Shown piece after piece: positions 9,001 through 15,000 of a stretch of DNA of 19,738 bases. A program made the position numbers. This stretch comes from a virus (taxonomy: Duplodnaviria; Heunggongvirae; Uroviricota; Caudoviricetes): the IMG/VR virus record IMGVR_UViG_2703718838_000006; one strand, written 5' to 3'. The first letter of the stretch is position 1. Each line of letters opens with the position of its first letter.

Positions 9001-12000
9001 GCAGCTCCTGCCCCACCNNNNNNNNNNNNNNNNNNNNNNNNNNNNNNNNNNNNNNNNNNNNNNNNNNNNNNNNNNNNNNNNNNNNNNNNNNNNNNNNNNN
9101 NNNNNNNNNNNNNNNNNNNNNNNNNNNNNNNNNNNNNNNNNNNNNNNNGGGCAGCTCCTGCCCCACCTGATTCTGGTTGGATTTGTTGTGCATTATCTAG
9201 CGTCAGATAAAAAACGTTTGACTGGTTAAGCTCTCCTTTTCTTCTGAATTCCCTTTTCAAAAACCCCATCTCTTCCAGTGCCCTAATGTGACTTTTTACT
9301 GTAGATCTGCTCACCTCACACTGGTCAGCGACATGTTGATATGAAGGCCAGCATTCGCCATTATCATTGGCGTTATCGGCAAGTTTAATCAGAACCAGTT
9401 TTCTCAGTGGGTTGCCAACCTTTATATTCATGGCCTTAGCCATAAGATTCATGCTCATTTTGACTTCTCCGAAGTTTTGTACCTGTTAAGTATTTCTCTC
9501 AGTGGCACAGCTATTGCTGGATTAACCCCTTGATAAAACTGGTCACGTAGCACATCTTTTCGGTGATTAACGCGTTTATTTTCCTGCTTTTTTCGCATAT
9601 AATTACCTCGTTGGATGTTGTTAAAATTCCATTTGTATTTGATCAGAACGCCCGGTCTTGCACACCGGGCGTTTTTTATTGGTGAGTCCATCAAGCGCAT
9701 ACTTAAAAGCCCTGCTAATCGGACTGATGTCTGATGCCATTCCGAAAGCACACAAGACCGAAGCAATAAATCTCCAGTCCGTTCTGCTTATCTTCGATTC
9801 ATGACAGCCAATCATCTTTGCCAGACCGCGCTGGGTAAGCGTTGACAGGTTGATGAGTAAATCAGTTTCAGCGCGATCAATTTCTCGCTGTGTTGGCTTG
9901 CTGTAGCTTGCTTGTGCCATTTGTTAATTTTCCTATATTGATATTGAGTTATAGCGGCACACCCAATGGATTTGCCGCTGATGTTTGCTCACCCGGTTAG
10001 AGGTGAAAGGCCAGAACTGTTAAAGAGCAATTTGCTTATGCCGCTTGGCGGTAAGCACTTTCTTGATACTTCAGGGCGCCAGCTGTAACGATTTCCAATC
10101 GATAGGCGTCTTTCTCTGGGATAACTTCTTTCCACTGAGAGACTGCTGCATCGCTAATGCCTAGTGCTTTAGCAACAGCACGCTGGGTTCCGAAGTGGTC
10201 AATAACATCTTTTTTGTACATAGACTCGCTCCGAAATTAAAGAACACTTAAATTATCCACCAAAGGAATCTTAAGTCAAGTTTATTTAAGATGTCTTAAC
10301 TATGAATACACAACTGATGGGTGAGCGTATTCGCGCTCGCAGAAAAGAACTCAAGATTAGGCAGGCTGCCCTTGGCAAGATGGTTGGCGTGTCTAATGTT
10401 GCTATTTCCCAATGGGAGCGATCTGAAACTGAGCCCAATGGCGAAAACCTATTGGCCTTAGCCAAGGCTTTGCAGTGCTCCCCTGATTACCTGTTGAAAG
10501 GAGAGGATAGTCTTTCAAACATTGCCTATCACAGCAGGCATGATCCAAGAGGTTCGTATCCTCTAATTAGTTGGGTAAGCGCAGGATGTTGGATGGAAGC
10601 TGTAGAGCCATATCATAGGCGTGCAATAGATAACTGGTACGACACAACGGTAGATTGTTCTGAAGACTCTTTTTGGCTCGACGTTAAAGGCGACTCAATG
10701 ACTGCCCCGGCAGGACTGAGTATTCCTGAGGGGATGATTATTCTCGTCGACCCAGAAGTCGAACCACGTAATGGAAAGCTGGTAGTCGCCAAACTTGAAG
10801 GAGAAAACGAGGCGACATTCAAAAAGTTAGTTATTGATGCCGGTAGAAAATTCCTGAAACCACTCAATCCACAATACCCAATGATTGAAATCAATGGGAA
10901 CTGTAAAATCATTGGCGTTGTCGTTGATGCCAAGCTAGCAAACCTTCCTTAAGGGGCTTTCGCCCCTTTTTTATTTCCCGTTAAAAATCAAAGACAAACT
11001 AAATTCACGCCCATAAAATTAAGTTTTCTTCAAAAATGCACTTGACCAATAAATTAAGAAGTCTTAAATTTAAGCCATCAGCAGGACGCTGGAAGCCAAA
11101 CGGAACAGATTGGCAGGCTCTTTAACATCGACGGACTCTCAACCTAACCGTTGAGACCAGAACTTGAGTGGTTTTGGGGATGGCGCGAATTGCAGCTGCA
11201 AGACAGCGATCGAGAAGATAAGCACCTCGACGCGTCATGCGCCAAAGCCACTTAAAGGAGACCATCATGGTAACCATTGTCTGGAAAGAATCCAAAGGTA
11301 CGGCAAAAAGCCGCTACAAAGCTCGCAGAGCAGAACTTATTGCCGAGCGACGCAGTAATGAAGCACTGGCGCGAAAAATTGCGCTAAAGCTCTCTGGTTG
11401 CGTCAGAGCAGACAAAGCAGCATCACTAGGAAGCCTTTGCTGCAAGAAGAAAGAAGAAGTCGTTCGAAAAAATAGAAGTATTTATTACAAAGATTCAAAC
11501 CCGTTAGGAAACAAAATACATGCAGTCCAAAAAATAAAATTGTACAGTAAACTACCGTACGGTGCTTGTTGAGTATGCTTATGGTGAAAAAGACTATTTA
11601 TGTTAATCCTGACCGCGGACAAAACAGAAAAGTATCTGATAGAGGTCTTACATCTCGAGACAGGAGGAGAATAGCGAGATGGGAAAAAAGGATAGCATAT
11701 GCATTAAAAAACGGTGTAACACCTGGATTTAATGCTATAGATGACGGTCCTGAATATAAGATTAATGAAGAACCAATGGACAAAGTTGACAAAGCATTAG
11801 CAACACCATTTCCTCGCGATGTCGAAAAAATTGAAGATGAAAAATATGAGGATGTAATGCACAGAGTTGTTAATCACGCTCACCAACGAAATCCAAATAA
11901 AAAATGGTCATAGCCCACTTCGGTGGGTTTTTTATTGTCTGAACTAACCTAATTTATTACAGCAAGCCACGGAGTGAAATGGGTGTGACTTGTGTTGGTC

Positions 12001-15000
12001 GCCAGAAAATGAAATTAGGCAGCAAACCATTTATTTGAGAGGAATTAATATGTCATCAATCCGCTTAACTACGAGAATAAAAGAGGAAATAGCTCGTAAC
12101 GCTTTAATTAAGTCTGGGGTTTTCACTGAACTTGAAGAAGTAACAAAGTTAAAGAACCAGCTTGCACTTGACGCCAGAGTTATTGCGTTTGGCGGTAAAA
12201 AGAAAACTGAGGAAGTGGATCAGTTATCATCCAAGTTAGTAGCTATAAGTGAAGAACTTGAAAAACTGGGATGTTCATTTTACTCATACGATGTTCGTTC
12301 TACATCAATTTATCTGACTGTATCTGGCAGAAGAGTTGGCTGGCATTCATACGGAAAAGACGGCAACGGTGAAGATATATTGCTCCCCACCCCAGAAAAA
12401 GATAAATGCATGTTTGACGCAGAACACGAAATAACAAAAAGGTTTGATGAAATCTGCGCATTGCAACAAAAACTTGAAGCCAAGAAAAAGGATATCGAAT
12501 CAAATGTATGGGCTGCTTTGAACTCAGTCACAACAGTTAAGCGACTTATTGAAGTTTGGCCTGAAAGCAAAGAGTTGCTACCAAAAGAAGCAGATAAAGC
12601 AAGTACAGCACTTCCTGCTTTACGGGTAGAAGATTTGAATAAGATGATTGGACTTCCTTCCGAGGCCGCATAGTCGGCCTTTATTTTTAGCATAAACAAC
12701 AGAATAAACACTGCACTGTGTATTCATTCCAACGAGTGAATACACGGAGCAATGTCGCTCGTAACTAAACAGGAGTCGACTTGTTCTGATTATTGGAAAT
12801 CTTCTTTGCCCTCCAATGTGAGGGCCTTTTTATATGCATAACAATAACGCTTCACTCGAGGCGTTTTCGTTATGCAATCAAACAGAAGGAGCATCCTATG
12901 CAACAGTTCGCTATTGCAGGGGCGGCATCGGTTCGCCCTTTCAACCCGATTTTATCGGTGCAGCATTCACGAAAAAATATTTTAACCGGAGCAGACTTTA
13001 AACAACCAAGAATGAAAAGTTTGCTAGAAAAGCTTTGGGATATTTTGAAACAACAAGGCCGCCCATGAGTTTTACAGATAACTGGTCAGACGAAGAATTC
13101 ATTCGTCAGATGAAAGATTTAATCGGTAACGAAGGAGATATTCATGTCACTTGCAACCACAGTGAAGGAGAGCAAGTTACAGAGACGCATGTACACGCAG
13201 AAAGCTCTCTGGTATCGCCATAATGGTGACCGCGAAGGAATGCGGGTATGCCTTAATTTGTCCCGAGTCGAAGTATTAAATCAGCGTTATTTCCTTGGGC
13301 CGTGTCCATTCTGAGGTGAATTATGGATTTGAACAAATTCGATGAGCCATTCAGCCCTGAAGATATCGAATGGCGAATACAGCAAAGCGGTAAAACACGC
13401 GATGGCAAGGTGTGGGCTATGGTGCTGGCTTATGTCACGAACCGGGCAATCATGAAACGCCTGGACGATGTTTGCGGCAAAGCAGGATGGCGCAATGAAT
13501 ACCGCGATATTCCCAACAACGGCGGAGTTGAATGCGGCATATCAATCAAGATTGATTCCGAATGGGTAACCAAATGGGATGCTGCTGAAAACACGCAGGT
13601 AGAAGCCGTCAAAGGTGGTCGTTCAGGTGCAATGAAGCGTGCTGCCGTTCAGTGGGGAATCGGTCGGTATCTGTATAACCTTGAGGAAGGTTTCGCACAA
13701 ACATCTCTCGATAAAAAGCAGGGGTGGCACAGGGCAAAACTGAAGGATGGAACAGGATTTTACTGGCTCCCTCCATCGCTGCCGGGATGGGCAATCCCAG
13801 CATCAGATAACAAACCATCACCAGAAAATACCAACCAGAAATCTCCATCGGTTGACTGCGAACAAATCCTGAAAGACTTCAGCGATTATGCGTCAACAGA
13901 AACTGACAAGAAAAAACTCATCGAGCGTTATCAGCGTGACTGGCAATTAATGGCTGGCAACGAGGAGGCGCAGGCTAAATGCGTTCAGGTAATGAACATC
14001 AGAGTTAACGAACTAAAACAGGCGGCATAAATGGCAAGCAGAGGCGTAAATAAGGTGATCATTATTGGTCGCCTTGGGCATGATCCAGAAATCAGATATT
14101 CACCATCAGGAACGGCATTTGCAAACCTTACAGTTGCTACGTCAGAACAATGGCGTGATAAGCAAACTGGAGAGCAAAAGGAGCAGACGGAGTGGCACCG
14201 TGTGGTAATGAGCGGGAAACTAGCAGAAATTGCCAGCGAGTATCTGCGAAAAGGCTCTGAGGTTTATCTTGAAGGCAAATTGCGGACAAGAAAATGGCAG
14301 GATCAAAGCGGACAGGATCGGTTCACTACCGAAGTTATCGTAGGCGTTGGTGGAACCATGCAAATGCTTGGTGGCAAGCAAGGAGGCAATGAACAGTCTT
14401 CACCTCAGCGAAATAACGGTCAGCAACAAAGACAGCAACCTCAGCAGCAGGGAAATCACAGCGAACCACCTATGGAGTTTGACGACGATATACCATTTGC
14501 GCCAGTAACTCTCCCCTTCCCTCGTCACGCTATTCACGCAATTTAATCAGGAGAAAATCATGCCAGCGCCTCTGTATGGTGCGGACGACGCGCGCCGCTG
14601 TTCCGGCAATTCCGTATCGGAGGTGCTGGATAAATTCAGAAAAAACTACGACCTGATAATGTCGCTACCGCAGGAAACGAAAGAGGAAAAGGAATTTCGC
14701 CATTGTATATGGCTTGCAGAGAAAGAAGAACGCGAGCGAATTTACAAGACATCAATCCGACCATTCCGCAAAGCCACATATACCCACGTCCCTGAATATA
14801 TCGACCCGCGCCTGCGTAATTACCGCTCACGCTATGGCGCTATCAGTAATGACTGAGGAATTAACAATGAAAACAATGAAGCTAAACATCGACCTCGGAA
14901 AATACGTTATTACCGGAACCAAACACGATCTGATTCTTAGCGAAAGAGGAATTATCAAAGAAGGCGAGAATGCAGGGAAAGAAACACTAAGTCGTATCGG

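Follow-up and report, generated by a model that had tools for sequence, protein, structure and literature searches.

We analyzed a stretch of Caudoviricetes DNA of 19,738 nucleotides (nt) held as IMG/VR record IMGVR_UViG_2703718838_000006. This whole stretch is referred to as the window; all coordinates are those of the window, which runs opposite to the standard lambda map. The region studied here lies around the antiterminator gene N, which is followed by the transcription arrest gene nun and by a headless copy of an N C-terminal end, which we call the fossil. The gene order is a P22-c2-like repressor gene (10302-10952), a pL-like promoter, nutL, N, an open reading frame (ORF) of ~110 amino acids (aa), a hairpin with a T run, a dead frame and a 207-aa gene (Table 1). 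To place the locus among its relatives, we use 66 IMG/VR loci with a window-type nun and 5,426 complete Escherichia coli genomes. Lambdoid morons, a concept from the comparison of the HK97 and HK022 genomes, are extra genes with their own promoter and terminator and an atypical composition, and mosaic joints lie at gene or domain borders. The genes described here and their order, N beside nun, are known and common, and the region is ordinary as found. Beside this known moron in a known place lies an unannotated recombination scar, the fossil.

Table 1. Features of the N-nun region, in window coordinates
Feature	Position	Strand	Description and basis
N antiterminator gene	11267..11572	+	101 aa; phage 21-type head, 'A-type' tail ..RSIYYKDSNPLGNKIHAVQKIKLYSKLPYGAC from about codon 63; ORF list, PHROG, arginine-rich motif, mismatch map
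Left end of nun module	11455..11572	+	N-tail part ~97% identical to non-coding DNA 5' of nun in HK022, HK75 and O276
PNun, putative nun promoter inside N codons	11520..11548	+	-35 ATGCAG (11520-11525), -10 TACAGT (11543-11548)
nun	11581..11913	+	HK022-type transcription arrest/exclusion factor; 110 aa from ATG 11581 (alternative ATG 11575)
nun intrinsic terminator	11912..11935	+	CCCAC-TTCG-GTGGG (stem 11912-11929), then T run
Fossil of the canonical (B-type, phage-21-like) N C-terminal end	11946..12038	+	NLIYYSKPRSEMGVTCVGRQKMKLGSKPFI followed by a stop codon; without an N head
pL-like promoter	11042..11070	+	TTGACC, 17-nt spacer, TAAATT; promoter scan and ~99% identity with the annotated phage 21 pL-nutL
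nutL	11117..11156	+	boxA 11117-11124, phage-21-type boxB stem-loop 11137-11156; mapped from the phage 21 annotation
Nmad5 family gene	12050..12673	+	207 aa; next pL-operon gene; Pfam Nmad5 8e-72

N, nun and the fossil N tail

The first ~145 nt of N are ~99% identical to phage 21 N, and the arginine-rich RNA-binding motif (ARM) of the protein is identical to the phage 21 N peptide of PDB 1NYB. The protein matches PHROG 271 ('anti-termination protein N-like') at 5e-31 over residues 1-99, and scores 18.4 bits against Pfam N_peptide, below the threshold of 27.9. Alignment to phage 21 located the point where the two genes part. The window is phage 21-like to ~11412, five scattered mismatches follow at 11413-11451, and mismatches are dense from 11463 on. 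An earlier reading of this DNA, made from the sequence only, had described an N gene with an AT-rich, divergent C-terminus, which is what we find: the guanine-cytosine (GC) content is 0.48 in the N head and 0.32 in the new tail, with 0.37 in nun and 0.47 in the whole window. The same reading held the entire region to be AT-richer than its flanks. This is correct for the left flank, the N head, but the right flank is also AT-rich (0.40 in the fossil and 0.40 in the next gene).

Comparison with other N genes shows the divergent tail (..NPLGNKIHAVQK..) to be a natural and widespread version of the C-terminal domain of N, a homolog of the canonical one and one of the standard tails; N itself is a mosaic of head, middle and tail modules. 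The A-type tail matches the canonical tail (..NRIYYRKPRSEMGVTCVGRQKMKLGSKPLI) with a BLASTP E value of 6e-6. A global DNA alignment of the new tail with the fossil scored -9, against -16 +/- 4.6 for shuffled sequences, which is not significant alone; the homology of the two tails is argued from the protein comparison and from intermediate alleles, and not from the DNA alignment. The core of the tail, Y-Y-x-D-x-N-P-[LF]-G-N-K-I-H-A-V-Q-K, is common to many intact N genes. A scan for the pattern GNKIHAVQK found it at ~120 viral loci, about half of which (about 60 loci) have no nun; at these the motif closes intact N genes whose heads are of lambda type, P22 type or other kinds (for instance ..RTWYKDANPFGNKIHAVQKSRGKSTPLI and ..RTYYRDANPFGNKIHAVQKMKLSSKPLI). 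The version linked to nun differs in its last residues and by AT-rich, mostly synonymous changes, and it occurs only beside nun, both in the 66 IMG/VR loci and in the E. coli genomes. The named phages mEp235, mEpX1 and Kapi1, which were deposited as complete genomes, carry the N of the window at 99-100% identity, so an N with the A-type tail is presumably active.

The gene behind N, taken in the sequence-only reading for a 115-aa ORF of unknown function, is nun, known from phage HK022 as a gene that keeps lambda from infecting. Its product is identical at 107 of 109 residues to HK022 Nun in the cryogenic electron microscopy structure PDB 6ALG (chain N, E 8e-71), and a sequence match (E 5e-11) places within it the 26-aa boxB-binding ARM peptide of PDB 1HJI. 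PHROG 5632 ('Nun-like transcription termination factor') matches at 4e-69, and the record of phage mEp235 already annotates the gene as transcription termination factor Nun. The C-terminus, ..VNHAHQRNPNKKWS, is identical to that of the solved chain and keeps H98, K106, K107 and W108, the residues listed for arrest (PMC5386594). Both substitutions relative to the solved chain (S to R near residue 11 and D to E near residue 64) lie outside these C-terminal residues. Nun is specific for lambda boxB (PMC5386594). A search of the protein against Pfam and NCBIfam matched no family, which marks an annotation gap, as neither collection holds a Nun model; among the E. coli RefSeq rows examined, nun is labeled 'hypothetical protein' or 'transcriptional regulator'. 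One E. coli protein of 119 aa (P0003) is a Nun variant with a 7-residue tandem duplication, RIARWEK RIARWEK, inside the ARM.

The putative nun promoter would be embedded in the codons of an essential regulator gene. Both PNun hexamers are identical to those of the 'nun gene promoter' annotated in phage O276 (GenBank MH547045). At the same positions, A-type tails without nun read ATGCGG and TCCAGC. Two bases separate the -10 hexamer TACAGT from TCCAGC; one of these changes is a Ser-to-Tyr replacement in N, and the changed bases are the positions that the promoter scan demands (A at position 2 and T at position 6). King et al. 2000 reportedly located a constitutive PNun immediately 5' of nun and saw termination immediately 3' of the gene. 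In the window, the terminator that had been proposed between N and its remnant is indeed present, with a folding energy of -10.3 kcal/mol and a z-score of -2.45. We also observed an inverted repeat, GTACAGTAAACTACCGTAC, at 11542-11560, which overlaps the annotated nun -10 hexamer and is scored by the scan as terminator-like on the minus strand.

Behind the terminator lies the fossil. Of its 93 nt, 87 agree with the N tail of phage 21, and dozens of working N tails differ from it hardly at all; this resemblance is not due to chance. The presence of a remnant of the canonical N C-terminus had thus been recognized correctly from the sequence, but its start had been placed at the ATG at 11979. The fossil begins at 11946, 33 nt 5' of this ATG, with AAC CTA ATT TAT TAC (NLIYY...), and an in-frame TGA stands just ahead of it at 11940-11942. 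It is untranslated DNA: the head is missing, an in-frame stop codon comes first, and a GGAG occurs before the internal ATG in only 1 of 22 nun-linked contexts. Among the 66 IMG/VR loci, 62 keep some of the fossil: it measures at least 84 nt in 50 and at most 62 nt in 12, and it is absent in 4. Changes in its first codons are found only in nun-linked copies (CTA or CGA, against CGT or CGC in working tails of this type), and the remaining ~75 nt, the 3' three quarters, are as conserved as working tails. The fossil is annotated in none of the records of mEp235, mEpX1, Kapi1 and PA28, and searches of the available literature found no prior description of the fossil or of N beside nun. As an object it is of an ordinary kind, a scar at a mosaic joint. 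It is also a clean and datable recombination scar, which seems to double as a homology arm.

The 472-nt nun module

Relative to phage 21 and SH2026Stx1, the window carries an extra block of exactly 472 nt (11474-11945) and is otherwise collinear with them. Two copies of a 10-nt direct repeat, ATTTATTACA, mark its borders (11480-11489 and 11952-11961). Phage 21 shares pL, nutL and the N head (~99%), but its N is uninterrupted, ends in the canonical tail and has no nun behind it. In SH2026Stx1 it is the other side of the joint that matches, namely the N tail and the Nmad5 gene that follows it, which correspond to the fossil and the Nmad5 gene of the window; here too N is uninterrupted and nun is missing. 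By the sequence comparisons the module is a single unit, made up of an alternative N C-terminal coding end with the putative nun promoter, nun itself and the intrinsic terminator. The A-type tail is assigned to the module because it holds the annotated nun promoter. Nun is a true moron, since it is absent from the collinear relatives, has its own annotated promoter and terminator, and is of atypical composition. The view that a moron was acquired inside N, which the sequence-only reading had put forward, is thereby borne out. Compared with the usual lambdoid morons, this one differs in two respects: its putative promoter sits within the codons of an essential regulator, and the module brings a copy of the last domain of that regulator, leaving a fossil as a direct repeat.

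Among the closest known loci is the nun region of HK022 (X16093, AF069308; Oberto et al. 1989 and King et al. 2000, as cited by PMC6256539 and PMC5386594). Its Nun protein is 98% identical to that of the window, the 118-nt stretch upstream contains the annotated PNun hexamers, the whole of 11455-11930 is 96.6% identical, and the terminator hairpin is the same apart from a few positions of the stem sequence. Unlike the window, HK022 lacks both an N head and a B-type fossil; its tail segment adjoins putL and a hairpin, and IS903 is found downstream. HK75 and O276 resemble HK022: all three share 11455-11930 with the window at ~96-97% and carry putL in place of the N head. In HK022 (L004, 1501-1617), and likewise in L005, L008, L023 and L058, the last ~36 codons of an A-type N are kept upstream of nun and are decaying (IYY to IYC, with the stop codon lost in some copies). 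HK022 thus has an N fossil on the other side of nun. We also considered whether HK022 putL as a whole is a decayed N. A tblastn match covers N residues 22-100, but the translated sequence contains a stop codon and bears no real resemblance to N ahead of ..IEVVRKN, and only the last ~36 codons are homologous; we rejected this candidate.

Phage mEp235 (JQ182731 / NC_019708) shows no substantive difference from the window. It is 98.8% identical over 11000-12700, with N and Nun annotated side by side and the same Nmad5 gene behind them. The adjacency of N and nun is also annotated in mEpX1 and PA28, and PA28-type copies differ in being ~91% identical and in having another downstream gene. The tail lies directly 5' of nun in all 66 IMG/VR loci. 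In the E. coli genomes nun was matched 221 times and the tail variant 188 times, the gap of 33 being the divergent PA28 class of nun matches. Altogether nun is present in ~220 of the 5,426 complete E. coli genomes (~4%). The event is old and shared, and not specific to the genome of the window, because it is seen in the 66 IMG/VR loci as well as in these ~220 genomes.

Neither neighbor of the module is constant. Its left partner among the 66 IMG/VR loci is a phage 21 head in 50, a diverged head in 11 and no head (putL or other) in 5. Its right partner switches exactly at the stop codon of the fossil, and the same downstream variants follow working N tails. The module is portable, and the fossil is probably the right-hand homology arm by which nun moves between phages with different downstream genes.

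Origin of the module and the fossil

On balance we think it probable, with clear reservations, that the region is the junction of a working phage-21-type N and an HK022-type nun, in which the 472-nt module sits where relatives have an uninterrupted N, the usual tail is stranded as a fossil, and an old recombination was followed by later mobility. A single old recombination event would have used homology on the left, in mid-N, within the stretch over which both tail alleles still agree; its right joint, at about N codon 67-70, would have been illegitimate and have stranded the native tail. Homology-facilitated illegitimate recombination combines one homologous anchor with one nearby illegitimate joint. 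It would give the footprint seen in the window, with the left joint in the shared part of N and the right joint a few codons away in the recipient, as far as the anatomy of the locus tells. The module would later have spread by homologous crossovers, with the body of N as its left arm and the fossil as its right arm. Repeated crossovers in the fossil would renew its 3' part, which therefore looks fresh.

Physiologically, the arrangement may work as follows, by analogy with HK022. In a lysogen, PNun would transcribe nun alone and the transcript would end at the terminator. Nun would then bind lambda-type boxB on the early RNA of a superinfecting phage and arrest RNA polymerase. The phage's own nutL is of phage 21 type and would be served by its own N; because both its own nut sites and the ARM of N are of phage 21 type, the two systems would not collide. 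After induction, N-modified polymerase would pass the nun terminator and the fossil and go on to transcribe the Nmad5 gene and the recombination genes.

The sequence-only reading had likewise proposed an insertion that displaced the N end. Part of this holds, in that a discrete 472-nt block supplies a new end, a gene and a terminator and strands the usual tail; the N end, though, was not rebuilt, as it is a natural allele. For the fossil, we favor an origin from the upstream N, as had also been proposed, because joining the N head to the fossil restores phage 21 N, the block shows exact collinearity with phage 21 and SH2026Stx1, and the HK022 left end and the start of the fossil fall within ~20 nt of each other.

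Several observations weigh against this account. The HK022 left end (11455) and the fossil start (equivalent to ~11465-11474) coincide only within those ~20 nt. N-tail fossils also lie directly 3' of nun or nun-like genes that have no N end upstream: L074 (order N, orf147, nun) has a lambda-type fossil and L076 (putL, nun) an A-type fossil, each right after the nun terminator. To this extent the assignment of the fossil to the upstream N is weakened. The fossil type in L074, L076 and L081 goes with lambda-type N, as does Nun's own head, which fits the rival origin set out below. Some E. coli phages carry the same fossil, with a related terminator and spacer, after other cargo (orf88 and orf147, described in the last section), so that the fossil does not track nun alone. 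The consensus promoter scan missed PNun, whose assignment in the window is a prediction from the O276 annotation and sequence identity only. Finally, the expression of nun, the exclusion of other phages and the activity of N are predicted properties of the phage of the window.

The strongest alternative is that the fossil is the discarded end of nun itself. Nun would have started as an N-type gene, into which a short 'arrest' module carrying a stop codon and a terminator was grafted, severing the polymerase-binding C-terminal domain; the upstream N would be a second, complete N with an A-type tail. Nun does resemble an N protein: residues 23-101 are collinear with residues 1-79 of 434/lambda-type N (26% identity, E 2e-4), and a profile comparison aligns Nun 23-76 with lambda-type N 1-55 (E 7e-6, 84% probability). 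Natural 88-aa proteins combine a lambda N head (54% identity to 434/lambda-type N, E 1e-17, Pfam N36) with a Nun end (45% identity, E 3e-22), and 12 nt after their stop codon stands a 12-codon fossil of a lambda-type tail, RQK(I/M)RGKSIPLI. At least four kinds of N head carry the arrest end (..VMHRVVNHAHQRN..KKW), the DNA of which is 86-90% conserved between genes that cannot otherwise be aligned. The fossils of L074 and L076 described above are as this origin would have them. For the window, however, the fossil is of phage 21 type (NRIYY...SEMGVTCVGRQKMKLGSKP) and matches the upstream N head and not a lambda-type head, and two cargo genes that do not resemble N, orf88 and orf147, also stand ahead of this fossil and junction. 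Moreover, Nun-family proteins have no similarity to phage 21- or P22-type N profiles, lambda-type N being the only one that aligns. A search with Nun residues 1-80, which was of limited reach, yielded nothing but Nun proteins, some of them frameshifted or fragmentary; N genes headed like Nun were absent from the matches. We therefore consider it unlikely, while still a serious contender, that the fossil of the window arose in this way.

The same observations bear on a broader proposal, which we advance tentatively and hold to be possible. Nun-type terminators may have been made from N antiterminators by a mobile C-terminal arrest module (..D-V-M-H-R-V-V-N-H-A-H-Q-R-N-x-x-K-K-W, often with a terminator) that was grafted on at least four kinds of N head, each time severing an N tail and leaving it as a fossil behind the new gene; the fossil of the window could be one of these. 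The data suggest that N genes have repeatedly been converted to terminators by a mobile end-module, with their own tails left behind. If this is true, the locus is a readable record of an antiterminator turned terminator, and a confirmed origin of Nun from N would explain where a much-studied transcription factor came from.

One may also ask whether the fossil has been kept for a function, either as a 19-aa peptide from ATG 11979 or as a cis-acting RNA structure or translation context for the next gene. The strong conservation of its 3' three quarters would fit such a role, as would the GGAG found 4 nt ahead of ATG 11979 in the window and the overlap of its stop codon with the ribosome-binding site of the Nmad5 gene. 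The conservation, however, is explained by repeated crossovers with working tails, and the G that makes the GGAG occurs in a single one of the 22 nun-linked contexts. No Rfam family matched at E up to 1 over 10800-12900. The fossil is shortened at 12 and lost at 4 of the 66 loci, and mEpX1 (truncated fossil) as well as HK022 and HK75 (none) are named phages with complete genome records. A retained function is thus very improbable. Hardly credible is the notion that the AT-rich N end is a makeshift product of the insertion and N a crippled gene or pseudogene: its last residues (..KLYSKLPYGAC) are unlike every nun-less tail and PA28-type copies extend 12 codons further after a 1-nt deletion, but the core motif recurs in many intact N genes, the three complete phage genomes named above carry the allele, and the frame is intact at every locus with an N head, decay (Y to C, stop lost) being confined to put-type phages without one.

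Neighboring genes and other Nun-end loci

The window is ~99% identical to phage 21 DNA from 11031 to ~11412, a segment that comprises pL, nutL and the N head. The annotated pL start of phage 21 maps to ~11077. Both boxA and boxB are identical to those of the annotated phage 21 nutL (L007, 1351-1358 and 1371-1390), the single mismatch of that alignment falling outside nutL. On the other side of the module, the Nmad5 gene is full-length. It is named for nucleotide-modification-associated domain 5, its function is unassigned in PHROGs, and RefSeq names the family in E. coli prophages. Its ribosome-binding site overlaps the stop codon of the fossil, and in SH2026Stx1 the gene lies directly 3' of an intact N. 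It is outside the nun module and marks the right-hand joint.

The 88-aa hybrids of a lambda N head and a Nun end were found in L081-L083, L323, L324, L326 and L327 (for instance L081, 2501-2814), each directly after another N-like gene. Further Nun-end proteins on other N-type heads are encoded in L327 (1875-2312), L328 (1465-1776) and L329 (1041-1629). L327 has two Nun-end genes in tandem, with a P22-type tail fossil behind the second. The nun-like gene of L329 comes directly after N, and the L328 protein shares 47% identity (E 1e-13) in its head with the N-terminal half of this L329 N. The Nun end is also found on a protein that is not N-like. In phage 434 (L006, 677-1546), a 289-aa protein encoded just after N ends in ..VNHAHQRNPNKKWS, the same 14 residues as the end of Nun, and the DNA past its stop codon matches the sequence downstream of nun in HK022 and HK75.

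Other genes occupy the position of nun ahead of the same B-type fossil. In L223, L224, L225, L241 and L242 (for instance L223, 7116-7844, minus strand), this is an 88-aa Cys/His-rich ORF, orf88 (MTSKQVSYKCYCPLCGRKF.., PHROG 20899), which follows an N with a P22-type tail. In L226, a put-type phage without N, it is a 147-aa ORF, orf147 (PHROG 13686), accompanied by a related terminator and spacer. We considered the orf88 cassette of L223 as an independent second displacement of an N tail. By eye, the cassette agrees at ~79% in terminator and spacer with the DNA that follows orf147, and its fossil has the same start, so that the same junction with swapped cargo is more likely. In L081 (3108-3224) and L082 (3108-3188 and 3749-3787), the small genes 3' of N are interspersed with a series of N-tail fossils of different types, as though each cargo gene in turn had brought a copy of the tail along or left one behind.

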